Shown in pieces: positions 276-32,317 of a stretch of DNA of 64,000 nucleotides. The notes below the pieces were generated by a model. It was not told where the DNA came from. It made no database searches and saw only the letters and a list, made by a program, of their open reading frames with translations. How positions within the stretch are numbered: the stretch's first letter is position 1; the number at the start of each line of letters is the position of its first letter. The position numbers and the translations under genes were made by a program. The stretch is from Balanoglossus misakiensis (taxonomy: Eukaryota > Animalia > Hemichordata), in assembly GCA_040954595.2 (NCBI GenBank), contig CM082590.2, forward strand, positions 10,814,088 to 10,878,087, written 5' to 3'.

Positions 276-2861
276 TCACCGTCGTTGCAAGTCGTCGTCA
301 CTGTCGCCTTCGCCGTCGCCGTTGTCGTCGTCTTCTTCCCCCCGGCTGTAAATAAAAAAAAAAATTATAGTAGCCCCAATAACTGCCATTTTACCTTTAA
401 GTGATAATGTACCACAATCTTTGTGGGGATTGTAATACCCATGTGCACATACCACAATAATTTGTATTCCTTCAACAGGTAGTTGTATAAATTGTTGCAA
501 CACTTGTTCTACAGAGTTTGACATTTTTGTGTATACCATCCACTTAATTAGCACATTTCAATGGGCCATTCAAGTGGAAAGTAATTTCATGAGAATAATT
601 CAAAAATGGTGCCTATTTAATGTGATCTAGAAACATAAACAGTGTGCACTGTAATGAAAATAAGTGATCAAGTCCCATATAAATTTATCCATTTTCCCAA
701 TCTAGTTTTGTGGAAAAGGACTTGCCAGATTTGCTATACATTAATTTCAGGGTATTGCACTCAATTTATGATGTATGAAATTACCCCATGCAATATTCCA
801 AATGATAACAAAACCTTAGATAAATTTCAAAGAATGAATCATATGTAAAATAATGCAATAAACATGCGAAATATATGAATGTGCCCATCATAATGAAGGT
901 TGCCAACCCCTTAGAATGATAGTCTACAGCCTACACATTGATCACCTGATTGCCCTGTCACAACTTGGCCAAGGGCTAAGGCCGCGATCTCGGGACACCC
1001 AGTTCAAATTTCTGGCCGTTTATCAGAATTTTAGGCGTCTGACCCTTTCCCTTTAGTGTAGCGCAGCCAGCGGTGGGATTGGGGCAGGGGACCATTCAGT
1101 ACTTTTATTGTTGCTTTGCAACTCATCAAAATACGGAAACATCTTTCAAATATGATGCGATATCAACCAAACTTCGTGTAATAACCTCTAAATATTCTCA
1201 AGCATAAAGTCTCCATTTTAAAATTATAGCTGGAAACTTACATTTTATATCGGTTTGGACATTTTCTGATAAATGCACACATGATGGTCGCCATGTCCCT
1301 CTTCGATAGGTTGTGGTGACCTGATACATGATTGAGAAAGAATGACATAATTAACAATATTAAAAGCAATAACATGTTTCTGACATTTGTCCAGGAAGGT
1401 TTTCATGATGGTTCTCAAATCCCCAATTTGGAGATTTCTTTGACCTGATACATGATTGAGAAAGCATGATATAAATAACAAAAAAATAAAGCAATATCCA
1501 TAGGATAACGAATAACGAATAATAATAAATCAATAAAAAGATTCTTTGTTTATCCATTGGATAAGTTTTTCCCAATGGGACAGTAGATATATCTTCACAA
1601 ATTCGGGACTGCGGCTCGGGCATCATCAATATTATGGTCAGAGATCACCATCCCTCGTGCAGGCCATAGATCATGATATTGCCCTAGCTAACATGTGTTA
1701 TTATTTAACTGTCAATCCCACAAGCATCGATCTACACATCATTGTCTACAGCAGTTAAATACATTTTAAAACAAAACTTACCAGCCGCATTTGGTGACAC
1801 AAAAAGTATCGCGGCTGGCCACCACCCCGGTGCCGGGCCGCTCCAAACAGCTCTGTCATGAGCTACATAATACAAACAGAAATAATTAGCATCATTTCAA
1901 GAAGAACATTAATGTAACAGATCCTTTCCAGTCAAGATTCATTTCCAAGCTGTTTCTGAGATTACCGCCCTCAATTGTTTATAAAGGTACACTTTTTATC
2001 CGAATATTATGGGACACCTTTATCCTTATAGCTTCATGGAAGCCATACAATAAATATACACATGTTGACGGTTGAGTTAAATCTGAGTCTCAGTAGTTTA
2101 ATCTGTCGAACCATCCAGGCGATATAACATACACACGAGTTACACATTTGATCAGCTTTGACTTTGTGCTACAGATCTTTACAATAAAACACACACAAGG
2201 ATTATGAGAAGATTTTTACATTTTTTGACCTAATAGACAAACTCCCATCTGCAGCCCAGCCTGCATCTACACACCAAAAATCTAGGTGGTGTGCCAACGG
2301 GTTTCCAAGTTTTTTATGTGGACATCCATCCATCCATCCATCCAGATTAAACCGATCCCTTAATACCAAATGGGCACTAATAACGGGAAACTTACCTGTT
2401 GGAGCGACGGCCTTGGGTATGAGCTGCCGCAGCTCTCTGACCGTGTAGTCATAGCTGTTTCTGCTGGGCAGCTCAATGATGTTATGATCTAAAGTCAACA
2501 ATATAAAAGTAGTTATTATTCTTTTGGGCAAATAATCAGTAAGCAAAGAACCATTCAATCATATTACAGGAAAACCATCGCATTTAAACTTAATCCAAGC
2601 ATATATCTGAAGAAGAACATTTCAATACAAGTACATACAAAAACACAATAATGTTAGCATTCAGAGAGACAGAGACAAAAAACAACTAAGAAATATTTAT
2701 ATTGTGACACTGCAGGTACCTTAAATTGGGCAAAACTCACTATACGAGACTGTTTTCTTGATCTTGTTTTCATCTAGGAACATGACGATTACCGACGGCT
2801 CATTGGCCAAATTGGCCAATGAGTCGACCTTTTTTTTTATGCTTTCAATTGTTCGTTTGAT
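276..2861 (-). CDS. NRF1/Ewg/P3A2-like DNA-binding protein, copy A (5' partial; exon 3 deleted; acidic tail truncated)
   Basis: GT-AG exons 2861-2741, 2488-2396, 1862-1782, 1320-1242 (alternative exon-6 variant from 1444) and 345-276 splice in one frame: IKRTIESIKKKVDSLANLANEPSVIVMFLDENKIK...IIELPSRNSYDYTVRELRQLIPKAVAPTAHDRAVWSGPAPGWWPAAILFVSPNAAGHHNLSKRDMATIMCAFIRKCPNRYKIRGEEDDD. A frameshift near 288 cuts off the Asp/Pro/His-rich tail, which continues in another frame to 38. No start exon found. Confidence 0.55.
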
Positions 2862-3074
2862 CTTTGAACAAAAAAATAGAAAAAATATGCATGATTCATC
2901 TGTTAATATCATAAAACGTAACTATGCCAAATACACATATGCAAGTCTTAGTAATAAGTAAATGCACCATGCCAAGATTCCCCGGCACAAACGCTGTAGG
3001 TTCGAAAACAGAAGATGCCTTACTTGGGGTGTGAACTGACTGCCACTCGATGTTTGATCCACAAATACCAGTGG

Positions 3075-4155: not shown

Positions 4156-5171
4156 GTAATATGAGTCAAAGACAGTTATAAGTATAAGGAAACAGAAATG
4201 TTCAGAAAGGAGATTCAAAGTATAAATCTTACCAAACGGGTCAATATTGTCAACTGAAGTCTTTTTGCGATTGCCATAGCAGCAATATTCCACGGGCATT
4301 CGACCTAGCTGTAAAAATCTGGACATCTTTTCTAGTTTGGGAGGGGGGGGGGAGAGTCTGGAAGGAATGCCTAAAATAAGTCGAGTATTCTAATAGGTGA
4401 GAAATGTGTGCAAATTTGTACTTGGTCATGACACATCAGCTTTGTGTTGTTGAGCAGTGAAGAAGCTACCCACATATCTTGAAAATTATGTTTTATTTTA
4501 TTTATTTATTAGGAAAACCTATGGGATTTAGTCCCATTTATAGGTTCAAAAAATATCTCAAAAAACAAAACTACAACAGACAAATGCATACGCTATACAA
4601 AGAACAAGTCAAATAAAATGAAGGGATGTATATACAAAATATCCGAAGAAAATCAAGAAAAAACAAGAACTATGTGGGCCCTCTACCAAATATGGAATTT
4701 TTGATGTCGGGTTGAAACTGAGCTTGACTATAGAAGATGTCTATATTTGGATGAGAAAGTAGAAGTTCGTTTAAACTACTCTACTACTTCATGAGTGAGT
4801 ATAGACAGATAATATTTTATATAGTGACACGATTTCATGTTAAAAATAAAAAAGTTAGAAACATTTCAAACTTACATGAAACTCCAGCCAAGTACTTCGG
4901 CGTACGAGTCAATATAGTAAACCCAACTGGGCACGATGATGCGCATGGCAAAAAATAAAGTTTATACAACAACAAAAAAGTCACACAATGGAAATAATAT
5001 TCCTTCTCCTTATGAACATACCACATAGCAATTTAGAAATTACTTTTATCACAAAGTCTCTCATGAAGCGGCATATCCCTTTCTGACACTTACATATGTG
5101 TATTTGGAAATGTTGTTTGACGATATTAGAGATGAATCATGCATATTTTTTTCAGTTTTTATGGTTCAAAG

Positions 5172-6250
5172 ACAATGGATACAAGTAACCCAAAAGGTTT
5201 GTAGTGTTCTTATTAAGTGAAAGAATTCATGTGAACATTTCAAATATATTATTACTCATGGGCATGTCACCAAAACATTCTAAGAACGACACTTAAATAT
5301 ATAATAATTTTTTTGTGAACCATTATGTCATATCAATATCTCATTTTCCATATCCTTAGATCAAAAAATGGTTGGCTACGGGCAATGAGTCATCTGTGGT
5401 AGTATTATGTTTTAGTAACAAGAATAAAGTGCAATGGACCGGTAAGCAACTCTTACTAAATACTTTGATTTCATTTAGAAAAAAGAATATTGTCTCGTAC
5501 AGACACTGTTTTTTACACACACTTATTTTATGACTATGCATATTTATTTTCCAGCCTTAGAAGCACGCTTTTTAACAACAACAATTTGAAATTGTTTAAC
5601 ATTTTTCAAATGCAGGTGCCGGCATATGAAGGCCTTCGCAACCAACATCAATGTAATTAAAGCCTTCAGAAAAACTGCCTTGGGGAAAAAAATTGAGTTA
5701 GTTTTGCCCATTTTAAATTGACTGCAGTGTCACATTGTTACGAAGAATAAAAGAGTTATTTGAAAAGATATTTAAACGTGCATATTTACAGGGATGCTTA
5801 CTAACACTTACATATGTGTAATTGGAAATGTTATGTTTGATGATATTAAAAGATGAATCATGCATATTTTTTTCTATTTTTTTGTTCAAAGATCAAACGA
5901 ACAATTGAAAGCCTAAGAGAAAAGGTAACCTCATTGGCCAATGGGCCGTCGGTGGTTGTCATGTTCCTAGATGGAAACAAGATCAAGTGGAGTGGTAACT
6001 ATTATTAAATATATTATGATTTCATTTAAGGAGAGAAAATTGTCCCGTATAAACACTGTTTTTTTTACACACACTTATTTTACGACTGTGCATATTAAAT
6101 GTCCAGCCTTCGAAGCACGCTTTTTAACAACAATTTGAAATTGTTAAACATTTTTCAAATGCAGGTGCCGGCATATGAAGGCCTTCGCAACCAACATCAA
6201 TGTAATTAAGGCCTTCAGAAAATCTGCCTTGGGGGGAAAAAAATTGGGTG
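5172..6250 (+). pseudogene. Degenerate NRF1-like exon 1-3 fragments (two sets)
   Basis: An exon-2 homolog at ~5360-5441 (IKKWLATGNESSVVVLCFSNKNKVQWT) is intact. Both exon-3 homologs (~5616 and ~6166) have a 1-nt deletion (GCC GGC ATA TGA) and damaged donors. Confidence 0.6.
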
Positions 6251-6291
6251 AAATATTTTTTTGTTTTAGCACCACCTGTTGGCCGTTTCCT

Positions 6292-8298
6292 TTTGGTACA
6301 AAATAGACCTGGGATGCTTACTAACACTTACATATGTGTATTTGGCATAGTTATGTTTTATGATATTAACAGATGAATCATGCATATTTTTTCTATTTTT
6401 TGTTCAAAGATTCAAAGAAGAATTGAGAGTCTTAGAAGAAAGGTACAGGCATTGGCCAATTTGGCCAATGGGCCGTCGGTGGTCGTCATGTTCCTAGATG
6501 GAAACAAGATCAAGTTTGGTACAAAATAAACCTGGGATGCTTACTAACACTTACATATGTGTATTTGGCATAGTTATGTTTTATGATATTAACAGATGAA
6601 TCATGCATATTTTTTCTATTTTTTGTTCAAAGATTAAAAGAAAACTAAATTCCATTCGGAGGAAGGTCGACTCATTGGTCAATTTGGCCAATGGGCCGTC
6701 GGTGGTCGTCATGTTCCTAGATGGAAACAAGATCAAGTTTGGTACAAAATAAACCTGGGATGCTTACTAACACTTACATATGTGTATTTGGCATAGTTAT
6801 GTTTTATGATATTAACAGATGAATCATGCATATTTTTTCTATTTTTTGTTCAAAGATTAAAAGAAAACTAAATTCCATTCGGAGGAAGGTCGACTCATTG
6901 GTCAATTTGGCCAATGGGCCGTCGGTGGTCGTCATGTTCCTAGATGGAAACAAGATCAAGTTTGGTACAAAATAGACCTGGGATGCTTACTAACACTTAC
7001 ATATGTGTATTTGGCATAGTTATGTTTTATGATATTAACAGATGAATCATGCATATTTTTTCTATTTTTTGTTCAAAGATTAAAAGAAAACTAAATTCCA
7101 TTCGGAGGAAGGTCGACTCATTGGTCAATTTGGCCAATGGGCCGTCGGTGGTCGTCATGTTCCTAGATGGAAACAAGATCAAGTTTGGTACAAAATAGAC
7201 CTGGGATGCTTACTAACACTTACATATGTGTATTTGGCATAGTTATGTTTTATGATATTAACAGATGAATCATGCATATTTTTTCTATTTTTTGTTCAAA
7301 GATTAAAAGAAAACTAAATTCCATTCGGAGGAAGGTCGACTCATTGGTCAATTTGGCCAATGGGCCGTCGGTGGTCGTCATGTTCCTAGATGGAAACAAG
7401 ATCAAGTTTGGTACAAAATAAACCTGGGATGCTTACTAACACTTACATATGTGTATTTGGCATAGTTATGTTTTATGATATTAACAGATGAATCATGCAT
7501 ATTTTTTCTATTTTTTGTTCAAAGATTAAAAGAAAACTAAATTCCATTCGGAGGAAGGTCGACTCATTGGTCAATTTGGCCAATGGGCCGTCGGTGGTCG
7601 TCATGTTCCTAGATGGAAACAAGATCAAGTTTGGTACAAAATAAACCTGGGATGCTTACTAACACTTACATATGTGTATTTGGCATAGTTATGTTTTCTG
7701 ATATTAACAGATGAATCATGCATATTTTTTCTATTTTTTGTTCAAAGATTAAAAGAAAACTAAATTCCATTCGGAGGAAGGTCGACTCATTGGTCAATTT
7801 GGCCAATGGGCCGTCGGTGGTCGTCATGTTCCTAGATGGAAACAAGATCAAGTTTGGTACAAAATAGACCTGGGATGCTTACTAACACTTACATATGTGT
7901 ATTTGGCATAGTTATGTTTTATGATATTAACAGATGAATCATGCATATTTTTTCTATTTTTTGTTCAAAGATTAAAAGAAAACTAAATTCCATTCGGAGG
8001 AAGGTCGACTCATTGGTCAATTTGGCCAATGGGCCGTCGGTGGTCGTCATGTTCCTAGATGGAAACAAGATCAAGTTTGGTACAAAATAGACCTGGGATG
8101 CTTACTAACACTTACATATGTGTATTTGGCATAGTTATGTTTTATGATATTAACAGATGAATCATGCATATTTTTTCTATTTTTTGTTCAAAGATTAAAA
8201 GAAGAATTGAAAGTCTTAGAAGAAAGGTACAGGCATTGGCCAATTTGGCCAATGAGCCGTCGGTGGTCGTCATGTTCCTAGATGGAAACAAGATCAAG
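6292..8298 (+). repeat. 223-bp tandem repeat, 9 units, each carrying a fused exon 1+2 of the NRF1-like gene
   Basis: The anchor tttggtacaaaata occurs at 6292, 6515, 6738, 6961, 7184, 7407, 7630, 7853 and 8076. Each unit has an acceptor (tttgttcaaag) followed by IKRKLNSIRRKVDSLVNLANGPSVVVMFLDGNKIK; the first and last units carry an I[QK]RRIESLRRKVQALANL variant. Confidence 0.9.
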
Positions 8299-8384
8299 TG
8301 GAGTGGTAACTATTATTTACATCTGTGGAGAAGCTGCTGCTGATGCCGATGATGATGATAGTGATGCTGATGCATCACCAGCAC

Positions 8385-9150
8385 CATTACCAACACGACC
8401 ACCACCACTGTCATCAGCACCACCACAAAATCTTCCAATTTTGGTAGTAGGCCCCTACCACCACCACCACCAGCATCCCCACTATGACTACAACTACTGG
8501 CCCCCATGAGTGTTGTATTGGTGAGTGACTATATGGGCGATTTTGTTAATCATTTTATTTACAGCCGTGATGATGATGATGATTACCAACACGACCACCA
8601 CCACTGTCATCAGCACCACCACAAAATCTTCCAATTTTGGTAGTAGGCCCCTACCACCACCACCACCAGCATCCCCACTATGACTACAACTACTGGCCCC
8701 CATGAGTGTTGTATTGGTGAGTGACTATATGGGCGATTTTGTTAATCATTTTATTTACAGCCGTGATGATGATGATGATTACCAACACGACCACCACCAC
8801 TGTCATCAGCACCACCACAAAATCTTCCAATTTTGGAAGTAGGCCCCTACCACCACCACCACCAGCATCCCCACTATGACTACAACTACTGGCCCCCATG
8901 AGTGTTGTATTGGTGAGTGACTATATGGGCGATTTTGTTAATCATTTTATTTACAGCCGTGATGATGATGATGATTACCAACACGACCACCACCACTGTC
9001 ATCAGCACCACCACAAAATCTTCCAATTTTGGAAGTAGGCCCCTACCACCACCACCACCAGCATCCCCACTACGACTACGACTGGCCCCCATGAGTGTCA
9101 AATTTGTATTGGTGAGTGACTATATGGGCGATTTTGTTAATCATTTCATT
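8385..9150 (+). repeat. 196-bp tandem repeat, ~4 units, derived from the 3' part of the terminal exon
   Basis: A 196-bp period is visible in the sequence and in the ORF starts at 8494/8690/8886. The unit matches the PLPTRPPPLSSAPPQNLPILVV tail also seen on the minus strand at 38-190. Confidence 0.85.
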
Positions 9151-9428: not shown

Positions 9429-12400
9429 ATCAAAAGTAAAATTAGAGAGATACGACGCAAGGTTTGTAGTGTTCTTATTAAGTGAAAGAATTCATGTGAA
9501 CATTTCAAATATATTGTTACTCATTTGCATGTCACCAAAACATTCTGTGTATTGAATGTAAAAGTACAACTGCCTAAATATAAGCAAGAACGACACTTAA
9601 ATATATAATAATTTTTGTGAGACATAATCTCATATCAATATATCATTTTCCATATCATTAGGTCGACTCGTTGGCCAAAATGGCCAATGGGCCAGCGGTG
9701 GTCGTCATGTTCCTAGTTGGAAAAAACATCAAGTGGAGTGGTAACTATTATTAAATATATTATTATTTCGTTTAAGAAAAGAAAAGTCTCGTATAGACAC
9801 TGTTTTTTACACACACTTATTTTATGACCGCATATTTATATTCCAGCCTTAGAAGCACGCCTTTTAACAACTAAAATTTGAAATAGTTTAACATTTTTCA
9901 AATGCAGGTGCCGGGCGTCTGAAGGCCTTCGCGACCAACACCAATGTGATTAAGGCCTTCAGAAGAGCGGCCTTGGGAAAAAAAAGTGAGTTAGTTTTGC
10001 CCAATTTAATGTGACTGCAGTGTCACAATATAAATATTTCTTAGTTGTTTTTTGTCTCTGTCTCTCTGAATGCTAACTTCATTGTGTTTTTGTATGTACT
10101 TGTATTGAATTGTTCTTCTGAAGATATATGCTTGGATTAAGTTTAAATGCGATGGTTTTCCTGTAATATGATTGAATGGTTCTTTGCTTACTGATTATTT
10201 GCCCTAAAGAATAATAACTACTTTTATATTGTTGACTTTGAATTCAGGTAACATCATTGAGCTGCCCAGCAGGGATTACATCGACTATTCTGTAAGGGAG
10301 CTGCGGCAGCTCATCCCCAAGGCCGTCGCTCCAACAGGTAAGTTTCCCGTTTTTAGTGCCCATTTGGTATTAAGGGATCAGTTTAATCTGGATGGATGGA
10401 TGGATGTCTGTCCACATAAAAAACTTTGAAACACGTTGGCACACCACCTTGATATTTGGTGTGTAGATGCAGGCTGGGCTGCAGATGAGAGTTTGTGTAT
10501 TAGGTCGAGAAAATGTAAAACTCTTCTCATAATCCTTGTGTGTGTTTTATTGTAAAGACATGTAGCACAAAGACAAAGCTGTCCAAATGTGTAACTCGTA
10601 CGTTAAGTGTATACCAAGAATCTCAGAAACAGCTTGGAAATGAATCTTGCCTGGAAAGGATCTGTTACATTCATGTTATTATTGACATTATTCTAATTAT
10701 TTCTTTATGTAGGCAGAGCTGTTTGGAGCGGTCCGGCACCCAACTGGTGGCCAGCCGCGATACCTTTTGTGTCACCAAACGCGACTGGTAAGTTAATTTT
10801 GTTTTAAAATGAATTCAACTGCTGTCAACAATGATGTGTAGATCGACACTTTTGGGATTGACAGTTAAATAATAACATCTGTTATCTGTCTGCATTTATG
10901 TATGTACGGTAGTCACATGACCTGGTAGGAAAATTGAATTTTCTGAAAATCTTGAAATGGCTTCTCAAAAATTCCAAGTTGAAATTTTGTGCCTGGAAAG
11001 TATGGTCTATACTCTTTTAAATGGTTGGCAGCAATATTGAACTAATTCCTAATTACAAATGTTTATACCGTGCATTTCTTCTCAGTCACCAGTTTCTTAG
11101 TTACTATGTTTGTTTAATTGATCAATACATATTTGTGAAGATATTATCTACTGTCCCATTGGGGAAAATGTATCCAATGGATAAACAAAGAATCTTTTTA
11201 TTGATTTATTATTATTCATTATTTATAGCATTCTTTCTTAATCATGTATCAGGTCAAGAAAATCTCCAAATTGGGGATTTGAGAACCATCATGAAAACCT
11301 TCCTGGACAAATGTCAGAAACATGTTATTGCTTTTAATATTGTTATTTATGTCATTCTTTCTCAATCATGTATCAGGTCGCCACCACTTTAAAAAATGGG
11401 AACTGGCGACCATCATGGAAGCATTTTTGGACAAATGTCCAAATAAATACAGGATGTAAGTTTTCCAGCTATAATTTTAAAATGGATACTTTATGCTTGA
11501 GAATATTTATGGCTTATTACACGAACTTTGGTCGATATCGCATCATATTTGAAAGATGTTTCCGTATTTTGATGATTTGCAAAGCAACAATAAAAGTACT
11601 GAATGGTCCCCTGCCCCAATCCCACCGCTGGCTGCGCTACACTAAAGGGAAAGGGTCAGACGCCTAAAATTCTGATAAAATTTGAACTGGGTGTCCTGAG
11701 ATCGCGGCCTTAGCCCTTAGCCAAGTTGTGACAGGGCGATGCAATCAGGTGATCAATGTGTAGGCTGTAGACTATCATGCTAAGGGGTTGGCAGCTTTCA
11801 TTATGATGGGCACATTCACATATTTTGCATGTTTATTGCATTATTTTACATAAGATTCATTCTTTGAAATTTATCTAAGTTTTTGTTATCATTTGGAATA
11901 TTGCATGGAGTTAATTTCATACATCATAAATTGAGTGCAACACCCTGAAATTAATGCATAGCAAATCTGGCAAGTCCTTTTCCACAAAACTAGATTGGGA
12001 AAATGGATAAATTTATATGGGACTTGATCACTTATTTTCATTACAGTACACACTGTTTATGTTTCTAGATCACATTAAAGAGGCACCATTTTTGAATTAT
12101 TCTCATGACATTACTTTTCACTTGAATGGCCGATTGAAATGTGCTAATTAAGTGGATGGTATACACAAAAATGTCAAACTCTGTTTGTAGAACAAGTGTT
12201 GCAACAATTTATACAACTACCTGTTGAAGGAATACAAATTATTGTGGTATGTGCACATGGGTATTACAATCCCCACAAAGATTGTTGGTATATTATCACT
12301 TAAAGGTAAAATGGCAGTTACTGGGTCTACTATAATTTTTTTTTTTATTTACAGCCGGGGGGAAGGGGATGACGACGATGATGATGACAATGATGACTAC

Positions 12401-12604
12401 GACGATGAAGATGATGATGAAGATGATGGCAGTGGCGGTGGTGGTGACGACGACGACGGCGACGCCGAACCGGAACCCGAACCGGAACCGGAAACGGAGG
12501 AAACGGAACCGGAACCGGAGGAACCGGAGGCGGAACCGGAGGAACCGGAACCGGAGGAACCGGAACCGGAGGAACCGGAACCGGAACCGGAACCAGAACC
12601 ATAA
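9429..12604 (+). CDS. NRF1/Ewg/P3A2-like DNA-binding protein with acidic tail, copy B (best preserved; 5' partial)
   Basis: Seven GT-AG exons (9429-9461, 9662-9740, 9908-9985, 10248-10337, 10713-10787, 11377-11455, 12355-12604) have compatible phases and no internal stop: IKSKIREIRRKVDSLAKMANGPAVVVMFLVGKNIKWSGAGRLKAFATNTNVIKAFRRAALGKKSNIIELPSRDYIDYSVRELRQLIPKAVAPTGRAVWSGPAPNWWPAAIPFVSPNATGRHHFKKWELATIMEAFLDKCPNKYRIRGEGDDDD...(EP)n*. An alternative exon 6 at 11253 (GQENLQIGDLRTIMKTFLDKC) reads to a stop at 11392. Start exon not found. Confidence 0.65.
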
Positions 12605-13459
12605 CCATAACCATAACCATAACCATAACCAGAACCATAACCATAACCATAACCATAACCAGACCCAGAACCAGAACCATAACCATAACCAGAACCAGAA
12701 CCAGAACCCGAAGGCGACGACGGCGACGATGGGGATGCTGATGGTGATGGTGGTGGGAGTGCTTATGGTGGTGCTGATGATGGAGATGGCGATCATGTTG
12801 GTGATGGTGATGAAGATGCATAACCAGCACCATTACCAACACGACCACACGACACGGGGGGAAGAAGAAGAAGACTACGCCGACGAAGACTTCGAAGACG
12901 ACGACGACGACGAAGACTACGCCGGCGAAGGCGTCAGTGACGACGACGGCGACGACGACCATGGGGATGCTGATGGTGATGGTGGTGGGGGTGCTTATGG
13001 TGGTGCTGATGATGGTGATGGCGATCATGATGGTGATGGTGATGGTCCTTTTCCACAAAACTAGATTGGGAAAATGGATAAATTTATATGGGACTTGATC
13101 ACTTATTTTCATTACAGTGCACACTGTTTATGTTTCTAGATCACATTAAATAGGCACCATTTTTGAATTATTCTCATGAAATTACTTTCCACTTGAATGG
13201 CCCATTGAAATGTGCTAATTAAGTGGATGGTATACACAAAAATGTCAAACTCTGTAGAACAAGTGTTGCAACAATTTATACAACTACCTGTTGAAGGAAT
13301 ACAAATTATTGTGGTATGTGCACATGGGTTTTACAATCCCCATAGAGATCGTGGTATATTATCACTTAAAGGTAAAATGGCAATTATTGGGGCTACTAGA
13401 ATTTTTTTTTTATTTACAGACGGGGGGAAGACGATGACAAAGACGAACCAGAACCAGAA

Positions 13460-13490
<31 letters not shown>

Positions 13491-14850
13491 AAGAGTCAGA
13501 GCAAGAGCCAGAGCCAGAGCCAGAGCAAGAGCCAGAGCAAGAGCCAGAGCAAGAGCAAGAGCCAGAGCAAGAGCCAGAGCAAGAGCCAGAGCCAGAGCCA
13601 GACGATGGGGATGCTGATGGTAATGGTGGTGGGGGTGCTTATGGTGGTGCTGATGATGGTGATGGCGATCATGTTGGTGATGGTGATGAAGATGCATCAC
13701 CAGCACCATTACCAACACGACCACACGACACGGGGGGAAGAAGAAGAAGACTACGCCGACGAAGACTTCGAAGACGACGACGACGACGAAGACTACGCCG
13801 GCGAAGGCGTCAGTGACGACGACGGCGACGACGACCATGGGGATGCTGATGGTGATGGTGGTGGGGGTGCTTATGGTGGTGCTGATGATCATGATGGTGA
13901 TGGTCCTTTTCCACAAAACTAGATTGGGAAAATGGATAAATTTATATGGGACTTGATCACTTATTTTCATTACAGTGCACACTGTTTATGTTTCTAGATC
14001 ACATTAAATAGGCACCATTTTTTAATTATTCTCATGACATTACTTTTCACTTGAATGGCCCATTGAAATGTGCTAATTAAGTGGATGGTATACACAAAAA
14101 TGTCAAACTCTGTTTGTAGAACAAGTGTTGCAACAATTTATACAACTACCCGTTGAAGGAATACAAATTATTGTGGTATGTGCACATGGGTATTACAATC
14201 CCCACAAAGATTGTTGGTATATTATCACTTAAAGGTAAAATGGCAGTTACTGGGTCTACTATAATTTTTTTTTTTATTTACAGCCGGGGGGAAGGGGATG
14301 ACGACGATGATGATGACAATGATGACTACGACGATGAAGATGATGATGAAGATGATGGCAGTGGCGGTGGCGGTGGTGGTGATGACGACGACGACGACGC
14401 CGAACCCGAACCGTAACCGTAACCGTAACCGGAGGAACCGGAGGAACCGTAACCGTAACCGGAGGAACCGGAGGAACCGTAACCGTAACCGGAGGAACCG
14501 GAGGAACCGGAACCGGAACCGGAACCGTAACCGGAGGAACCGGAGGAACCGTAACCGTAACCGGAGGAACCGTAACCGTAACCGGAGGAACCGTAACCGT
14601 AGGAACCGGAGGAACCGGAACCGGAACCGGAACCCGAAGGCGACGACGGCGACGATGGGGATGCTGTTGGTGATGGTGGTGGGGGTGCTTATGGTGGTGC
14701 TGATGATGGTGATGGCGATCATGTTGGTGATGGTGATGCTGATGCATCACCAGCACCATTACTAACACGACCACACGACACGGGGGGAAGAAGAAGAAGA
14801 AGAAAACGACGAAGACTACGGCGACGACCATGGGGAGGTCGATCGTCAAC
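11975..14850 (+). repeat. Triplicated intron-6/terminal acidic exon block with hexanucleotide microsatellites
   Basis: The same ~370-bp intron segment precedes acceptors at 12355, 13420 and 14284. The exons contain (GAACCG)n, (TAACCA)n, (GAGCCA/GAGCAA)n and (TAACCG)n runs. Confidence 0.85.
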
Positions 14851-16200
14851 AAATGTCCAGAAAAATTATGAAAGCAAGTTTTCCACGTTTTAAAATGGAG
14901 ACTTTATGTTAGAGAATATTTAGGGGTTATTACATTAAGTTTGGTCGATAACACATCATTTGTCCAGGAACATGTTATTGTTAATTATATCATGCTTTCT
15001 CAATCATGTATCAGGTTCACCACCACTTAAAAAAAGGATGTAAGTTTTCCAGCTATAATTTTAAAATGGATACTTTATGCTTGAGAATATTTATGGGTTA
15101 TTACACGAAGTTTGGTCGATAACGCATCATTTGTCCAGGAACATGTTATTGTTAATTATATCATGCTTTCTCAATCATGTATCAGGTCACCACCGCCTCA
15201 AAAAATGGGAACTGGCAACCATCATGGAGGCATTTTTAGAAAAATGCCCAAGTAAATACAGGACGCAAGTTTTCGAGCTATAATTTTAACATTGATACTT
15301 TATGCTTGAGAATATTTATGGGTTATTACACGAAGTTTGGTCGATAACGCATCATTTGTCCAGGAACATGTTATTGTTAATTATGTCATGCTTTCTCAAT
15401 CATGTATCAGGTCATCACCACAACCTAACGAAGAGGGACATGGCGACCATCATGTGTGCATTCATTCAAAAATGCCCAAGGAAATACAGGATGTAAGTTT
15501 TCCAGCTATAATTTTAAAATGGAGACTTTATGCTTGAGAATATTTAGGGGTTATTACATTAAGTTTGGTCGATATCGCATCATTTGTCCAGGAACATGTT
15601 ATTGTCAATTATGTCATTCTTTCTCAATCATGTATCAGGTCACCACCGCCTCAAAAAAAACGGGAACTGGCAACCATCATGGAGGCATTTCTAGAAAAAT
15701 GCCCAACAAAATACAGGATGTAAGTTTTCCAGCTATAATTTTAAAATGGATGCTTTATGCTTGAGAATATTTATGGGTTATTACACGAACTTTGGTGATA
15801 TCGCATCATTTGTCCAGGAACATGTTATTGTTAATTATGTCATGCTTTCTCAATCATGTATCAGGTCAACACAACCTATTGAAGAGGGACATGGCGACCA
15901 TCATGTGTGCATTTATTAGAAAATGTCCCACCCGATATAAAATGCAAGTTTTCCAGCTATAATTTTAAAATGGAAACTTTATGCTTGAGAATATTTAGAG
16001 GTTATTACACGAAGTTTGGTTGATATCGCATCATATTTGAAAGATGTTTCCGTATTTTGATGAGTTGCAAAGCAACAATAAAAGTACTGAATGGTCCCCT
16101 GCCCCAATCCCACCGCTGGCTGCGCTTCACTAAAGGGAAAGGGTCAGACGCCTAAAATTCTGATAAACGGCCAGAAATTTGAACCGGGTGTCCTGAGATC
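14850..16200 (+). repeat. ~226-bp tandem array of exon-6 variants of the NRF1-like gene
   Basis: The acceptor tcaatcatgtatcag precedes exons at ~15015 (internally deleted), 15186, 15411, 15639 (+2 frameshift) and 15865. The last four alternate between KKWELATIMEAF and KRDMATIMCAF types. Confidence 0.85.
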
Positions 16201-17500: not shown

Positions 17501-17503
17501 AAG

Positions 17504-19091: not shown

Positions 19092-22000
19092 GTAAGTTAT
19101 CCAGGTAGACGTTTTAAAATGGAGACTTTATGCTATTATGAAAACTGCCCATGTCAAATATTATTCCAAAATGGTTTGTCATGCACATGAAATATTTTTA
19201 AACTTTAAAATCATGGAAAAATCATGTTTATTTCTTGATATTTGGCCAAAATAATTTCAATATTAAATTTATGCAAATTAGACATATTTCCACATGGTGG
19301 ATTCGGGTGCATTTTTGATATGTTGTTCTAGACACCTCTCCACAGTATATTCTGAAAAAAAAATTCTGTTGCAATTTGTGGTGGGTCTAGCCCTATATTT
19401 ACTAGACTAAGTCAAAGAGCTGAGACAGCTTATTCAAAAAGCTGTCAGTACAACAGGCAAAAGGTATGTATGGAGCAGCCAAGCATATGAAGGGGTTCGC
19501 GACAAACAAAAGTATCCGAAAGGCTTTCAAAAAAGCAGCCTTAAAAAAGGTGAGAGTAAGTTTTGTTCGTTTTAAGGATGACTGCATTGTCACATTGTTA
19601 CGAAGAATAAAACAGTTATTGGAAAAGATATTTAAACGTGCATTTACTGGGATGCTTACTTACATATGTGTATTTGGAAATGTTTTATGATATTAACAGA
19701 TGAATCATGCATACTTTTTCTATTTTTTTTTCAAAGATTAAAAGAAGAATTGAGTCTTCTAAGAAAGGTTAACTCGTTGGCCAATTTGGCCAATGAGCCG
19801 TCGGTGGTCGTCATGTTCCTAGATGGAAACAAGATCAAGTGGAGTGGTAACTATTATTAAATATATTATGATTTCATTTAAGAAGAGAAAATTGTCCCGG
19901 CAATGGCCGCAAGTTAAAAGAAAGGTTTGTAGTGTTCTTATTAAGTTAAAGAATTCATGTGAACATTTCAAATATATTGTTACTCATTTGCATGTCACCA
20001 AAACATTCTATGTATTGAATGTAAAAGTACAACAGCTAGCCTATATATAAAGCTCATTGAGCTGCCCAGCAAGGACTACATAGATTATTCGGTTGTCGTC
20101 ATGTTCCTAGATGGAAACAAGATCAAGTGGAGTGGTAACTATTATTAAATATATTATGATTTCATTTAAGAAAAGAAAATTGTCTCGTATAAACACTGTT
20201 TTTTACACACACTTATTTTATGACTGCATATCAATTTTCCAGCCTTCGAAGCACGCTTTTTAACAACAACAATTTGAAATTGTTTAACAAGTGCCGGCAT
20301 ATGGTGGTTGGAAGTAGCCAATCAACCATCTGTGGTTGTTTGTTATTTCCACAACAAGTGCAATGGACTGGTAAGTAACTGTTACTAAATACTTTGAAAT
20401 ATGATTTCATTTAAGAAAACTGTCCTGTATAGACACTGTTTTTTACACAAACTTATTTTATGACTGTGCATATTTATTTTCTAGCCTTAGAAGCACGCTT
20501 TTTAACAACTAAAATTTGAAATTGTTTAACATTTTTCAAATGCAGGTGCCGGGCATATGATGGGATTCGCGACAAACCAAAGTATCCAAAAGGCTTTCAA
20601 AAAAGCAGCCTTAAAAAAAGGTGAGAGTAAGTTTTGTTCATTTTAAGGGTGACTGCATTCTCACATTGTTACGAAGAATAAAACAGTTATTGGAAAAGAT
20701 ATTTAAACGTGCATTTACTGGCCCAGGGATGCTTACTTACATAAGTGTATTTGGAAATGTTTTATGATATTAACAGATGAATCATGCATATTTTTTCAAT
20801 GTTCTTTGTTCAAAAGTTCAACAAAGAAAAATCAGGAGGGAGTGGATACACGTGTGTATTTGAATCTTGCAAATTTTTTTCTATTTTTTTTGTTCAACGA
20901 TCAAAAGTAAAATAAGAGAGATACGACGCAAGGTTTGTAGTGTTCTTATTAAGTGAAAGAATTCATGTGAACATTTCAAATATATTATTACTCATGGGCA
21001 TGTCACCAAAACATTCTGTGTATTGAATGTAAAAGTACAACAGCCTAAATATAAGCAAGAACGACACTAAAGTATATAATAATCTTTCTGAAATATTATG
21101 TCATATCAATATCTCATTTTCCATATCATTAGATCAAAAAATGGTTGGAAGTAGCCAATCAACCATCTGTGGTTGTTTTTTATTTCCGGAAAAATAAAGT
21201 GGAATGGACTGGTAAGTAACCGTTACTAAATATTTTGAAATATGATTTCATTTAAGAAAAGAAAATTGTCTTGCATAGACATTGTTTTTACACACTTATT
21301 TTATGACTATGCATATTTATTTTCTAGCCTTAGAAGTGCGCTTTTTAATGTGAGGAAGGCTTTTAAAAATGCAGCTTTAAAAAGAGGTGAGAGTAAGTTT
21401 TGTTCGTTTTAAGGGTGACTGCAGAGTGACATTACAAATATTTCTTAGTTGTTTCATTTTTTGTCTGTGTCTGTCTAAATGCTAACTGTTTTTTTGTGAT
21501 TTTATAAGGAAATGGATTGAAATGTTCTTCTGAAGATATATGCTCGGATTAAGTTTAAATGTGATGTGATTGAATGGTTTTCTTTGCTTACTGATTATTT
21601 GCCCAAAAGGATAATAACTACTTTTATATTGTTGACTTTAGATCAAAAACTAACTTTTAAAAGCAGAGACGCTGAAGATTACAATGTCACTGAGCTGCGA
21701 AAGAATATTACCAGGGCAGTTAGTGATAAAGGTAAGGTACCCGTTTTTAAGTTGCAAACACATATATACATACAGCTTGGAAATGAATCTTGCCTGGAAA
21801 GGATCTGTTACATTAATGTTGTTATTGACATTATTCTAATTATTTCTCTTTGTATTATGTAGGGCACCGAAATGATTGGAAAGGCCAACGCCCAGAATGG
21901 TGGCCCACAAGGGCTCCATTTCAATCCCCCAATGATCGAAGTAAGTTTTGTTTGTATAATATAAGTGCGTTTGTTAATTGCTGTCAACAATGATGTGTAG

Positions 22001-24750
22001 ATCGACACTTGTGGGATTGACAGCATCTGTTATCTGTCTGCATTTATGTATGTACGGTAGTCACATGACCTGGTAGGAAAATTGAATTTTCTGAAAATCT
22101 TGAAATGGCTTCTCAAAAATTCCAAGTTGAAATTTTGTGCCTGGAAAGTATGGTCTATGCTCTTTGAAATGGTTGGCAGCAATATTGAATTAATTCCTAA
22201 TTACAAATGTTTATACCGTGCATTTCTTCTCAGTCACCAGTTTCTTAGTTACTATGTTTGTTTAATTGATCAATACATATTTGTGAAGATATTATCTACT
22301 GTCCCATTGGGGAAAACGTATCCAACGAAAAAAACAAAGATTTTTTATTGATTTATTATTATTATTTATTAATTAAAGCATTTTGTCTTAATCATTTTTC
22401 AGCTAAAGAAAGCCTGAAAAGGTTTCAATTGGAGGCCATATTCCAGGCGTTCCTGGACAAATGCCCACAAAAATATAAAATGCAACTTTTCCAGGTAAGC
22501 GTTTTAAAATGGAGACTTTCTATACTTGAGAATATTTAGGGGTTATTACACGTAGTTTGGTCGATAACAAATAATTTCTCCATAAAGATTGTGATATATT
22601 ATCACTTAAAGGTAAAATGGCAGTTATTGGGTTTACTATAATTTTTTTTTTATTTACAGCCACGGAGAAGATAATCATCCTGATGATGAAGATGCTGTTG
22701 GGGACATTGCTGATGGGGACGATTCTGTCGGGGACATTGCTAATGGGGATGATGCTGATTTTATGTGTGGCAAGTATGGTCTATGCTCTTTTAAATGGTT
22801 GGCAGCAATATTGAACTAATTCCTAATTACAAATGTTTATACCGTGCATTTCTTCTCAGTCACCAGTTTCTTAGTTACTATGTTTGTTTAATTGATCAAT
22901 ACATATTTGTGAAGATATTATCTACTGTCCCATTGGGGAAAACGTATCCAACGAAAAAAACAAAGATTTTTTATTGATTTATTATTATTATTTATTAATT
23001 AAAGCATTTTTTCTTAATCATTTTTCAGCTAAAGAAAGCCTGAAAAGATTTCAGTTGGAGGCAATATTTCAGGCGTTCCTGGACAAATGTCCGCAAAAGT
23101 ATAAAATGTAAGTTATCCAGGTAGACGTTTTAAAATGGAGACTTTATGCTATTATGAAAACTGCCCATGTCAAATATTATTCCAAAATGGTTTGTCATGC
23201 ACATGAAATATTTTTAAACTTTAAAATCATGGAAAAATCATGTTTATTTCTTGATATTTGGCCAAAATAATTTCAATATTAAATTTATGCAAATTAGACA
23301 TATTTCCACATGGTGGATTCGGGTGCATTTTTGATATGTTGTTCTAGACACCTCTCCAAAGTATATTCTGAAAAAAAATTCTGTTGCAATTTGTGGTGGG
23401 TCTAGCCCTATATTTACTAGACTAAGTCAAAGAGCAGAGACAGCTTATTCAAAAAGCTGTCAGTACAACAGGCAAAAGGTATGTATGGAGCAGCCAAGCA
23501 TATGAAGGGGTTCGCGACAAACAAAAGTATCCGAAAGGCTTTCAAAAAAGCAGCCTTAAAAAAGGTGAGAGTAAGTTTTGTTCGTTTTAAGGATGACTGC
23601 ATTGTCACATTGTTACGAAGAATAAAACAGTTATTGGAAAAGATATTTAAACGTGCATTTACTGGGATGCTTACTTACATATGTGTATTTGGAAATGTTT
23701 TATGATATTAACAGATGAATCATGCATACTTTTTCTATTTTTTTTCAAAGATTAAAAGAAGAATTGAGTCTTCTAAGAAAGGTTAACTCGTTGGCCAATT
23801 TGGCCAATGAGCCGTCGGTGGTCGTCATGTTCCTAGATGGAAACAAGATCAAGTGGAGTGGTAACTATTATTAAATATATTATGATTTCATTTAAGAAGA
23901 GAAAATTGTCCCGGCAATGGCCGCAAGTTAAAAGAAAGGTTTGTAGTGTTCTTATTAAGTTAAAGAATTCATGTGAACATTTCAAATATATTGTTACTCA
24001 TTTGCATGTCACCAAAACATTCTATGTATTGAATGTAAAAGTACAACAGCTAGCCTATATATAAAGCTCATTGAGCTGCCCAGCAAGGACTACATAGATT
24101 ATTCGGTTGTCGTCATGTTCCTAGATGGAAACAAGATCAAGTGGAGTGGTAACTATTATTAAATATATTATGATTTCATTTAAGAAAAGAAAATTGTCTC
24201 GTATAAACACTGTTTTTTACACACACTTATTTTATGACTGCATATCAATTTTCCAGCCTTCGAAGCACGCTTTTTAACAACAACAATTTGAAATTGTTTA
24301 ACATTTTTCAAATGCAGGTGCCGGCATATGGTGGTTGGAAGTAGCCAATCAACCATCTGTGGTTGTTTTTTATTTCCACAACAAGTGCAATGGACTGGTA
24401 AGTAACTGTTACTAAATACTTTGAAATATGATTTCATTTAAGAAAAGAAAACTGTCCTGTATAGACACTGTTTTTTACACACACTTATTTTATGACTGTG
24501 CATATTCATTTTCTAGCCTTAGAAGCACGCTTTTTAACAACTAAAATTTGAAATTGTTTAACATTTTTCAAATGCAGGTGCCGGGCATATGATGGGGTTC
24601 GCGACAAGCCAAAGTATCCGAAAGGCTTTCAAAAAAGCAGCCTTAAAAAAGGTGAGAGTAAGTTTTGTTCATTTTAAGGGTGACTGCATTGTCACATTGT
24701 TACGAAGAATAAAACAGTTATTGGAAAAGATATTTAAACGTGCATTTACT
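18742..24750 (+). repeat. Direct segmental duplication, ~2 kb (18742-20720 vs 22758-24750)
   Basis: Near-identical sequence at an offset of ~4016 bp; duplicated ORFs at 18779/22795, 19466/23481 and 19823/23837. Confidence 0.85.
21133..22820 (+). pseudogene. NRF1-like copy D (damaged)
   Basis: Exons 21133-21211, 21642-21731, 21863-21940, 22403-22481 (GC donor) and an acidic exon from 22660 that is cut by a duplication junction at ~22758. The exon-1 acceptor is mutated (caacg) and exon 3 lacks its 5' half. Confidence 0.55.
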
Positions 24751-24824: not shown

Positions 24825-25946
24825 GTTACACAAAGAAAAATCACGAGAGAGTGGAGGCAAATTGAAAGGAAGGTTTGTAGTGTGCTTAGTCAGTGAAAGA
24901 ATTCATGTGAACAGTTCAAATATACAGTTAATCATTTGCATGTCACCAAAACGTTATTAAATGTAAAAGTACAACAGCCTAAATATAAGCAAGAACGACA
25001 CTTAAGTATATAATAATCTTTGTGAAATATTATGTCATATCAATATCTCATTTTCCATATCATTAGATCAAAAAATGGTTGGAGATGGCCAAACAACCAT
25101 CTGTGGTTGTTTTTTATTTCAAGAAAAATAAAGTGCAATGGACCGGTAAGTAACTGTTACTAAATACTTTGAAAAATGATTTCATTTAAGAAAAGAAAAT
25201 TGTCTCGTATAGACGCTGTATTTACACACTTATTTTATGACTGTGCATATTTATTTTCTAGCCTTAGAAGTACGCTTTTTAACAACCACAATTTGAAATT
25301 GTTTAACATTTTTCAAATGCAGATGCCCGCCATATGGCAAAATTTGCTAAAAACAAAAATATAAGGAAGGCGTTTAAAAATGCAGCTTTAGAAAAAGGTG
25401 AGAGTAAGTTTTGTTCATTTTAAGGGTGACTGCAGTGTGACATTACAAATATTTCTTAGTTGTTTCATTTTTTGTCGGTGTCTGTCTAAATGCTAACTTT
25501 TTTGTGATTTTATAAGGAAATGGATTGAAATGTTCTTCTGAAGATATATGCTCGGATTAAGTTTAAATGTGATGTGATTGAATAGTTTTCTTTGCTTACT
25601 GATTATTTGCCCAAAAGAATAATAACTACTTTTATATTGTTGACTTTAGATCAAAAACTAACTTTTAAAAGCAATGACGCAGAAGATTACACAGTCACTG
25701 AGCTGAGAAGAAATATTACCAGGGCAGTTAGTGATAAAGGTAAGGTACCCGTTTTTAAGTTGCAAACACATATATACATACAGCTTGGAAATGAATCTTG
25801 CCTGGAAAGGATCTGTTACATTAATGTTGTTATTGACATTATTCTAATTATTTCTTTGTATTATGTAGGGCACCGAAATGACTGGAAGGGCCACCGCCCA
25901 GAATGGTGGCCCACAAGGGCTCCATTTAAATCCCCCAATGCTCGAA
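24825..25946 (+). CDS. NRF1-like protein, copy E (exons 1-5 intact, 3' exons lost)
   Basis: Exons 24825-24872, 25067-25145, 25323-25397, 25650-25739 and 25869-25946 are in frame: VTQRKITREWRQIERKIKKWLEMAKQPSVVVFYFKKNKVQWTDARHMAKFAKNKNIRKAFKNAALEKDQKLTFKSNDAEDYTVTELRRNITRAVSDKGHRNDWKGHRPEWWPTRAPFKSPNAR. A rearrangement junction at ~26400 removes exon 6. Confidence 0.5.
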
Positions 25947-28232: not shown

Positions 28233-29751
28233 AAAGTAAATAATTAAAAAACATATTACTGAAATGGAACACATAGAAGAGAACATGCCCGAATAGAACA
28301 CAGTTTATGAATTCTACTGGCGGTGGAATAAAATCGCGCGACTTTAGAAATTATTGAACATGTTTGCACACGCTCAATTGGCATGTTCTGGAACAGTGAA
28401 CGATGAGAGGCCCAGGAACTGGCATGATTTTTCCCCAACTAAACAACGGATTTCAAAATATGAAAATGTTTATCTTTTTATCAAAGAAAATCATATCATA
28501 ATGAGGGACATATATAAGAGGTCAAAACTCAGCATGCATTCTGTGCCATCCTATTCACATACGTGTATGATGGATGGCAACAACACGGCGCCTAGTGGAG
28601 CCTGGATCTCGTTCGCGTTCGGGGTGGGGTGGGGTGGGGGTGGGGCATTGACGAGGACAATAAAGCACGATGAGATGACAACAAGCACTGGGCCGCCTGT
28701 ATTGACTGGGAGCGAATGTGACAGCTGTCATCTTTCAAGTGATTAGAGATATGAATACAGAGTAGTAATCACGTATTCACAGAGTTCGGGATCATTGATG
28801 TATGCAGCCAGCTCCAGTTTCGTGCCTTCAACATTGCGAAAGCGTTCAGAACAATTCCACCGTCACATGCAAATACATATGACCTAACATGTTTGGGTTC
28901 AACCATCAATATTAACTTTAAGTTGCATTTATTATCACTAATTCCTTAACTTGTTGATTTAGAGTGTTTTTTGTTGTTTTTGTCTGGCAAGTACACAATC
29001 AAATAATGACTATCAACTTATTAAACACCTATAGCTTCTAAGTTCTTCAGGACAATGACCTCGCAATAAATGCCTGTAACCAGCGGCAACAGTTGGAACA
29101 TGCATGTGAGACGAGCTACGCGCTTTAAGCACAGGTGTAATGACAAAGCACGTTTTATGTTCAAAGTGAACGTTTAGTGAACAGTCAATCCCATAAGGCA
29201 GTGCTCACACAAGATGCCTTATGGACCAAACTTTGCGTACCATAACCCCTAAATATTCTCAAGCATAGAAAGTCTCCATTTTAAAACGCTTACCTGGAAA
29301 ACCTTCATTCGGTATCTCGTCGGACACTTCCATGATGGTTGCCATGTCCCTCTTCAATGCCCATACCATCATGATCGCCATCACCATCACCACCGCGGCT
29401 GTAAATAAATAAAATAATAATGAAATAACAAACATGCAAAAAATGTGAATATGCCCATCATAATGAAAGCTGCCAACCCCTTAGAATGATACTACAACCT
29501 ACACATTGAGCATTAGCCTATCACAACTTCGCGATCCAAGGGCACACGGTTCAAATTTCTGGCCGGGAAATTGTTTATCTTGGCACATTTTTATAAACTG
29601 TACTGTTTTTTAGGTATGCATGTATGATAAAGGGGTTATTACAGGAAGTTTGGTCGATAACGCGACTTATCTCGTGATGGTCAGTGTTTTTTTTTCTTGT
29701 TGCTTCGCGACTCATCAAAATACGGACACGTCTCCAGAATACGACGAGTAA

Positions 29752-32317
29752 TCACACCCCTAAATATTCTAAAGCATAAAGTCTCCATTTTAAAACGTCT
29801 ACCTGGAAAACTTGTATTTTATACTTTTGCGGACATTTGTCCAGGAACGCCTGAAATATTGCCTCCAACTGAAATCTTTTCAGGCTTTCTTTAGCTGAAA
29901 AATGATTAAGAAAAAATGCTTTAATTAATAAATAATAATAATAAATCAATAAAAAATCTTTGTTTTTTTCGTTGGATACGTTTCCCCCAATGGGACAGTA
30001 GATAATATCTTCACAAATATGTATTGATCAATTAAACAATCATAGTAACTAAGCAACTGGTGACTGAGAAGAAATGCACGGTATAAACATTTGTAATTAG
30101 GAATTAATTCAATATTGCTGCCAACCATTTCAAAGAGCATAGACCATACTTTCCAGGCACAAAATTTCAACTTGGAATTTTTGAGAAGCCATTTCAAGAT
30201 TTTCAGAAAATTCAATTTTCCTACCAGGTCATGTGACTACCTTACATACATAAATGCAGACAGATAACAGATGCTGTCAATCCCACAAGTGTCGATCTAC
30301 ACATCATTGTTGACAGCAATTAACAAACGCACTTATATTATACAAACAAAACTTACTTCGATCATTGGGGGATTGAAATGGAGCCCTTGTGGGCCACCAT
30401 TCTGGGCGTTGGCCTTTCCAATCATTTCGGTGCCCTACATAATACAAAGAGAAATAATTAGAATAATGTCAATAACAACATTAATGTAACAGATCCTTTC
30501 CAGGCAAGATTCATTTCCAAGCTGTATGTATATATGTGTTTGCAACTTAAAAACGGGTACCTTACCTTTATCACTAACTGCCCTGGTAATATTCTTTCGC
30601 AGCTCAGTGACATTGTAATCTTCAGCGTCTCTGCTTTTAAAAGTTAGTTTTTGATCTAAAGTCAACAATATAAAAGTAGTTATTATTCTTTTGGGCAAAT
30701 AATCAGTAAGCAAAGAAAACCATTCAATCACATCACATTTAAACTTAATCCGAGCATATATCTTCAGAAGAACATTTCAATCCATTTCCTTATAAAATCA
30801 CAAAAAAGTTAGCATTTAGACAGACACAGACAAAAAAAGAAACAACTAAGAAATATTTGTAATGTCACTCTGCAGTCACCCTTAAAACGAACAAATCTTA
30901 CTCTCACCTTTTTTTAAAGCTGCATTTTTAAATGCCTTCCTTACATTTTTGTTTAATGCAAATTTTGCCATATGGCGGGCACCTGCATTTGAAAAATGTT
31001 AAACAATTTCAAATTGTGGTTGTTAAAAAGCGTACTTCTAAGGCTAGAAAATAAATATGCACAGTCATAAAATAAGTGCGTAAAAAACAGTGTCTATGCA
31101 AGACAATTTTCTTTTCTTAAATGAAATCATATTTCAAAGTATTTAGTAACGGTTACTTACCAGTCCATTCCACTTTATAAATAAAAAAACAACCACAGAT
31201 GGTTGATTGGCTACTTCCAACCATTTTTTGATCTAATGATATGGAAAATGAGATATTGATATGACATAATATTTCAGAAAGATTATTATATACTTTAGTG
31301 TCGTTCTTGCTTATATTTAGGCTGTTGTACTTTTACATTCAATACACAGAATGTTTTGGTGACATGCCCATGAGTAATAATATATTTGAAATGTTCACAT
31401 GAATTCTTTCACTTAATAAGAACACTACAAACCTTGCGGCGTATTTCTCTTATTTCACTTTTGATCTTTGAACAAAAAAAATAGAAAAAAATTTGCAAGG
31501 TTCAAATACACACGTGTATCCACTCCCTCCTGATTTTTCTTTGTTGAACCTTTGAACAAAGAACATTGAAAAAATATGCATGATTCATCTGTTAATATCA
31601 TAAAACATTTCCAAATACACTTATGTAAGTAAGCATCCCGGGCCAGTAAATGCACGTTTAAATATCTTTTCCAATAACTGTTTTATTCTTCGTAACAATG
31701 TGACAATGCAGTCACCCTTAAAATGAACAAAACTTACTCTCACCTTTTTTTAAAGCTGCTTTTTTAAAAGCCTGTCTTATATTTTTGTTTTTAGCAAATT
31801 TTGCCATATGGCGGGCACCTGCATTTGAAAAATGTTAAACAATTTCAAATTGTGGTTGTTAAAAAGCGTACTTCTAAGGCTAGAAAATAAATATGCACAG
31901 TCATAAAATAAGTGTGTAAAAAACAGCGTCTATGCAAGACAATTTTCTTTTCTTAAATGAAATCATATTTCAAAGTATTTAGTAACAGTTACTTACCGGT
32001 CCATTGCACTTTATTTTTCTTGAAATAAAAAACAACCACAGATGGTTGTTTGGCCATCTCCAACCATTTTTTGATCTAATGATATGGAAAATGAGATATT
32101 GATATGACATAATATTTCACAAAGATTATTATATACTTAAGTGTCGTTCTTGCTTATATTTAGGCTGTTGTACTTTTACATTTAATAACGTTTTGGTGAC
32201 ATGCAAATGATTAACTGTATATTTGAACTGTTCACATGAATTCTTTCACTGACTAAGCACACTACAAACCTTCCTTTCAATTTGCTTCCACTCTCTCGTG
32301 ATTTTTCTTTGTGTAAC
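29752..32317 (-). CDS. NRF1-like protein, copy F (inverted; 5' partial)
   Basis: Exons 32317-32270, 32075-31997, 31818-31744 (second exon-3 copy at 30982-30908), 30655-30566, 30434-30357 and 29894 onward are in frame. The exon-6 donor is mutated, so it reads through to a stop at 29752. Inverted duplicate of sequence at 20.6-22.5 kb and 24.7-25.4 kb. Confidence 0.5.

Follow-up and report, generated by a model that had tools for sequence, protein, structure and literature searches.

A tangle of small-exon gene copies with likely, remote kinship to NRF1 in the hemichordate Balanoglossus misakiensis

The window analysed here is a stretch of 64,000 nucleotides from the hemichordate Balanoglossus misakiensis (GenBank assembly GCA_040954595.2, contig CM082590.2, positions 10,814,088 to 10,878,087, forward strand). 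Self-comparison shows its first part, 1-32.4 kb, to consist of direct and inverted copies patched together, in which small exons recur as gene-like units and as arrays. An earlier note on this DNA had taken them for an expanded, fast-evolving family of genes like NRF1/Ewg/P3A2. NRF1 is among the more conserved transcription factors of animals, and acts as a homodimer that binds GCGCATGCGC. The tangle is probably a cluster of small-exon gene copies, most of them broken, that are arranged in tandem and inverted, descend from NRF1 and have had their introns evened out by exchange between copies.

The locus, its exons and its units

Seven exon types recur: E1 of 33 or 48 nt, E2 of 79, E3 of 75 or 78, E4 of 90 or 93, E5 of 75-81, E6 of 79, and an acidic E7. 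The recurring exons carry AG acceptors and GT donors and their phases, 0-1-1-1-1-2, match one another, so that the seven small exon types of the earlier note stand as described. With reference exons and introns as probes, copies of these elements paint 21,346 of the 32,441 bases. The exon types are real, and at most one complete copy is present in the window.

Splicing by coordinates yields seven units, A to G, which fall into two subtypes, I (A and B) and II (C-G). Five stop-free units had been cited before, of which B alone joins E1 to E7 in a single open frame, some 227 amino acids long, with a tail that stops early, inside an EP repeat. Of 20,000 random chains, 17 were open over the lengths of its six domain exons, as were 10 of 20,000 shuffles. 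Units A, C and E lack exons, and the fifth frame, at 29752-32317, joins E1-E3 of G to E4-E6 of F by skipping F's own E1-E3. The supposed expanded family consists mostly of fragments, together with two old subtypes.

9429..12604, plus strand: unit B, full set; E1 9429-9461, E2 9662-9740, E3 9908-9985, E4 10248-10337, E5 10713-10787, E6 11377-11455, E7 12355-12604
11253-11320, plus strand: donor-less E6 variant of unit B
38..345, minus strand: E7 of unit A, its last exon; acidic stretch, stop near 276
1242-1320, minus strand: E6 of unit A
1377-1444, minus strand: donor-less E6 variant of unit A
1782..1862, minus strand: E5 of unit A (the WWP exon, subtype I)
2396..2488, minus strand: E4 of unit A (the ELR exon)
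2741..2861, minus strand: fused E1+E2 of unit A, reading into the E3 donor; E3 deleted
17504..19091, plus strand: unit C (subtype II); E1 17504-17551, E2 17746-17824, E3 deleted, E4 18252-18341, E5 18473-18550, E6 19013-19091
20900..22760, plus strand: unit D (subtype II); E1 acceptor CG, E3 deleted, E6 donor shifted
24825..25946, plus strand: unit E (subtype II); E1 24825-24872, E2 25067-25145, E3 25323-25397, E4 25650-25739, E5 25869-25946, without E6 and E7
29250..31465, minus strand: unit F (subtype II); E2 frameshifted by the loss of 7 nt, E3-E5 open, E6 without its normal donor
31744..32317, minus strand: unit G (subtype II), E1-E3 only; E1 32270-32317, E2 31997-32075, E3 31744-31818
34291..34433, minus strand: speculative candidate start exon for unit G; an ATG and one codon, then a strong phase-0 donor; not among the best-scoring candidates

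The frame of unit A is open only because its E3 is deleted, and its Gly/Asp and Pro-rich tail with a His run goes on in a different frame past the E7 stop. Unit C likewise needs its deleted E3 to be skipped and is without an E7 of its own, whereas an E7 lies at 22660 in D, out of phase, and at 29398 in F. Shared sequence beyond unit G stops at 32441. Adjoining the upstream edge of G is a 128-residue open frame without a Pfam match (32463-32849, plus strand), which we take to resemble the 3' end of a long interspersed nuclear element (LINE) retrotransposon.

Besides the units there are arrays of single exons (nine fused E1+E2 copies, five E6 variants and several E7 tails), together with broken modules and duplicated blocks.

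5113..6250, plus strand: E1-E2-E3 modules, all broken, with E1 truncated, E3 copies frameshifted and E1 fused to E2 in one case
6292..8305, plus strand: nine 223-bp tandem copies, each an acceptor and a fused, intronless E1+E2
8386..9150, plus strand: Pro/His tail of E7, repeated about four times in tandem as a 196-bp unit
13045..14828, plus strand: two more copies of E7, of the acidic/EP-repeat kind, with their acceptors at 13420 and 14284
14888..16034, plus strand: tandem array of five E6 variants, at 15015 (deleted), 15186 (GC donor), 15411 (intact), 15639 (frameshift) and 15865 (GC donor)
16208..17503, plus strand: broken E1/E2/E3 modules and a 213-bp tandem repeat
19411..19482, plus strand: fragment of an E4/E5 junction without its intron, fused into E3 and present again at about 23426-23497
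18742-20846 and 22758-24855, plus strand: 2.1-kb duplication, 96.8% identical, carrying chimeric exon pieces

At 20054-20134 and 24068-24148 (plus strand) a piece of E4 is joined in frame to a piece of E2 at a short shared sequence, in a manner like template switching.

Is such a cluster still alive? A start (ATG) exon was not found for any unit when donors were scanned upstream of A (15 candidates), B (34) and G (21), and this tells against the reading given at the outset. The cluster could instead be wholly dead, a collection of pseudogene fragments copied from working paralogs elsewhere, whose spliced complementary DNA may have served to re-template the exons. Such an origin is on balance unlikely, though it would suit both the missing start exon and the finding that at most one of the seven units is complete, as well as the intronless E1+E2 and E4/E5 junction pieces and the way in which divergence changes exactly at exon edges. 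Unit B, however, keeps an open frame and canonical sites over six junctions. The intronless junctions in the window sequence lie at AG/G microhomologies that would permit intron loss at the level of DNA, and recombination with templates that are only 60% identical is unlikely. A dead cluster is in any case compatible with NRF1 ancestry.

Likeness to NRF1

The comparison with NRF1 employed sequences gathered from metagenome contigs, all three of those tested being members of PF10491, and a profile of 135 sequences that includes the best 120 of 492 relatives. A profile of the window genes aligns with it end to end over 134 columns, spanning NRF1 columns 19-183, with a score of 29.5 (P 5.6e-4); the 150 column shuffles all stayed below it, at 13.2 +/- 2.7 and at most 22.3. 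The E4-E6 half scores 31.1 (P 1e-4, above 60 of 60 shuffles), mostly from E5, which on its own scores 26.2, and E1-E3 gives P 0.025, with 2 of 60 shuffles equally high. E1+E2 alone falls into the correct NRF1 register (P 0.013), as does E4+E5 alone; E2, E3 and E6 taken singly do not. When the whole 64-kb window was searched in six frames with the NRF1 profile, the top five fragments were five of the six E5 copies (E-values 0.26-1.4). In the ESM Atlas the E4-E5 stretch ranked the PF10491 cluster first at 0.83, tied with two unnamed clusters, and E1+E2 ranked a MADS/SRF cluster first at 0.75; both scores are below 0.9 and serve as leads only.

According to excerpts of a structural study (PMC10810270), the dimerisation domain of NRF1 is MADS-like, closest to the MADS domain of SRF, and bases are read through R206, N242 and R244. 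In the merged alignment R206, W224 and the WWP motif have retained counterparts, that of R206 in all E4 copies, and every E5 copy has other residues in place of N242 and R244. With two of NRF1's three base-reading residues replaced, the DNA target would therefore differ. The domains are basic (isoelectric point 9.8-10.8). AlphaFold models E1+E2 as helix-strand-strand with a predicted local distance difference test score (pLDDT) of 74, and the E4-intron-E5 stretch with a pLDDT of 42; fold searches with the 37-residue E1+E2 model returned nothing clear (best E-value 5.6, best Z 3.0).

A shared intron adds a different kind of evidence. Among 112 fetched NRF1 loci that have the relevant motif in frame, 98 carry no interruption, and in 13 of the 14 interrupted ones a phase-1 acceptor lies in a Gly codon that aligns with the E4/E5 junction, which is likewise of phase 1.

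Several results nevertheless weigh against NRF1 ancestry. Once the WWP exon E5 is removed P rises to 0.053, and 90 permutations of the exon order score 30.5 +/- 1.7, as high as the native order, because E5 carries most of the signal. The profile score is therefore no proof of colinearity. Spliced unit models reach -0.4 to 7.5 bits on the 135-sequence profile, shuffles reach 5-11 bits on a smaller NRF1 profile, and the HH probability is 30%. In the Pfam scan, neither single exons nor natural stretches matched PF10491 (gathering threshold 23.5 bits). E5 instead matches the fungal family PF11001 weakly, with a best E-value of 0.0073 (range 0.007-1.7) and a best score of 16.8 bits, below the curated cut-off of 31.3. 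The shared intron sits at an AG/G-type site, where parallel gain is possible, and by eye the E1/E2 and E5/E6 introns match no visible NRF1 intron position.

A rival reading is that the protein belongs to a wider group of WWP helical bundles, of which fungal YDR124W-like (PF11001) proteins and unnamed invertebrate clusters would be examples, its N-terminal likeness to NRF1 being due to chance. It can appeal to E5 matching PF11001 and not PF10491, to unnamed mollusc and basidiomycete Atlas clusters also standing at 0.83, and to a profile score that comes mainly from E5. The proposal is improbable all the same, since E1+E2 independently gives both the MADS-like lead and the correct NRF1 register, the E4/E5 intron is common to NRF1 loci, and the order of domains is the same as in NRF1. 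Kinship to NRF1 is thus likely but remote. We hold with some confidence that the genes are of NRF1 ancestry, and do not file them as canonical members; the call made earlier is probably right on the strength of the profile, the Atlas leads and the shared intron, though weaker than was claimed.

Sequence searches turned up no close protein relative, which is a weak negative: a word-indexed search with the E4-E5 alignment, confined to longer proteins, left none of 7,964 candidates at an E-value of 10 or below, and NRF1 was not among the matches in searches of PDB sequences with window pieces. One match of the E4-intron-E5 stretch among 1.84 billion representatives, P0001, aligns to the read-through part of the intron and was rejected. 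An alignment of exon peptides onto the NRF1 scaffold was wrongly stacked and was dropped.

Introns, exons and the proposed history

The main oddity of the locus, which the earlier note had missed, is that the introns are far more alike than the coding parts. For instance, the exons of B and E share 42% amino acid identity over 114 residues, with a synonymous divergence (pS) of 0.84 and a nonsynonymous divergence (pN) of 0.39, values which mark them as old and under purifying selection. The alignable introns of the same two units are identical at 1024 of 1101 positions (93%, p 0.070), as taken from local alignments with inserted blocks excluded, and the shift in divergence at the exon edges is sharp. 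The copies are also mosaic. Informative sites within subtype II alternate along the gene, grouping CE against DF, then CD against EF, and then E against CDF, and B, which lies within subtype II distances in the tree of intron 1, is set apart by a branch of 0.87 in that of E2. Introns far closer than synonymous sites, together with mosaic copies, fit gene conversion and unequal exchange of the opsin type. The pattern is not simply fast protein evolution.

Could the introns instead show the true, recent age of the duplicates, and the exons have been accelerated by an arms race, as is reported for some venom genes? Subtype II exons do vary more than their flanks (34 of 326 against 73 of 1248 columns, Fisher p 0.006). 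Such acceleration is very unlikely, however, as synonymous sites are saturated, the intron and exon trees are discordant and pN is below pS in every pair of units, which also leaves the earlier term 'fast-evolving' unsupported in the sense of positive selection. That the domain is borne by a transposon, or that the tangle is partly an assembly artefact, is very improbable in spite of the chaotic patchwork, the inverted copies, the 2.1-kb duplication at 96.8% and the tandem units that are 97-99% identical, given that no transposase-like open reading frame (ORF) was recognised by eye among 201 ORFs and that assembly errors would not yield changes biased towards synonymous sites.

The descent and exchange of NRF1-like copies would have proceeded as follows. 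A duplicate of NRF1 would have diverged, split into two subtypes and become amplified in place, with both old subtypes kept by purifying selection. Gene conversion and unequal crossing-over by way of near-identical introns would then have homogenised those introns and halted at the diverged exons. Such exchange may also have moved exon variants among copies, giving rise to the deletions, exon arrays and chimeras and leaving most copies broken. One comparison speaks against this: D and F differ by nine synonymous changes and one nonsynonymous change, seven of them in E6, and a difference so rich in synonymous changes is not readily explained by selection against conversion, there being little protein difference to protect.

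The copies are predicted to encode a transcription factor in which E1-E3 form a MADS-like part for dimerisation, E4-E6 a helical part that reads DNA, and E7 an acidic tail rich in proline. If functional, this protein would form dimers through E1-E3, attach to DNA by means of the retained R206-equivalent arginine in E4-E6 and regulate transcription through its tail. As N242 and R244 are replaced, it would read a motif other than the TGCGC of NRF1. A bolder version is open to considerable doubt: that these are lineage-specific, NRF1-derived factors with a rewired base-reading loop, at least unit B being expressed, in which selection separates two ancient subtypes and introns act as handles for swapping exon cassettes, so generating new mosaic DNA-binding proteins.

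Elsewhere in the window, at 40060-50600 (plus strand), an acyl-CoA dehydrogenase 6-like gene is duplicated in tandem. The duplicate mostly shows the usual pattern of alignable exons. Exon matches of 75-81% that rise to 95-98% in patches, and a 518-bp block with intron at 86%, suggest patchy conversion there. One exon of a neighbouring enzyme matches a hemichordate and a fish protein at 84% identity and a crinoid protein at 82%. A 700-bp element with an internal inverted repeat is present in two copies of opposite orientation that are 92% identical (3077-3762 and 45096-45801), with smaller pieces at 36315-36433 and 47556-47645. The other neighbours are as follows.

35636-37776, minus strand: sulfotransferase-domain gene with an N-terminal membrane anchor (PF00685, E-value 1e-4, just under the cut-off), presumably WSCD-like
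51518-51901, minus strand: ORF with a signal-peptide-like start and two cysteines; no Pfam match
56560-58698, minus strand: clathrin adaptor small-chain (sigma) gene, PF01217
58834-64000: GC-rich 116-bp satellite of 59-bp halves, extending past the window end

Comparison with known systems

In common with NRF1/Ewg/P3A2 (PF10491; PDB 8K4L and 8K3D; PMC10810270), the window genes are predicted to have a MADS-like dimerisation part first, followed by a linker and a helical part that binds DNA. They also share residues corresponding to R206, W224 and the WWP motif and, in the E1 of subtype II, to T109 and R113, as well as a phase-1 intron at the same glycine and a basic domain. Unlike NRF1, they reach about 21-24% identity, against 54-79% among the best 120 of the 492 NRF1 relatives, and they have N242 and R244 replaced, a shorter linker, an acidic, EP- and Pro-rich tail and many, mostly broken copies. 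The resemblance to the YDR124W-like helical bundle (PF11001, Atlas rank 13) is a weak match over the WWP exon; it covers about 22 of 124 positions and leaves E1-E3 without a match.

Extra Nrf1-domain genes are not unheard of, as excerpts of a survey of nine species (PMC8122590) give none or one in eight of them and three in Branchiostoma floridae. A divergent NRF1-like cluster was not described in the literature searched, a weak negative since most subscription papers and supplements lay outside that search. If the ancestry is correct, these natural paralogs, with the scaffold kept and two of three reading residues changed, would show a route to new specificity, and also that genes of this kind escape annotation pipelines because their exons measure 33-93 nt and fall below Pfam thresholds.

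As to the introns, the process of homogenisation is already known. In excerpts of the respective reports, interlocus gene conversion has homogenised the introns of primate red and green opsins, the exons of which keep their differences (PMC3924837), a comparable pattern of interlocus conversion is found in the ATP1A1 duplicates of the frog Leptodactylus (bioRxiv 10.1101/2020.08.04.234435), and a spider silk gene cluster has homogenised introns (PMC9779670). The window paralogs resemble the opsins and ATP1A1 in that introns are homogenised and exons remain distinct. They differ in that every exon is an island of divergence with saturated synonymous sites, and in that the copies number more than two, lie in either orientation and are mostly broken. 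With its many copies, the locus is a clear example of introns homogenised around exons that stay frozen.

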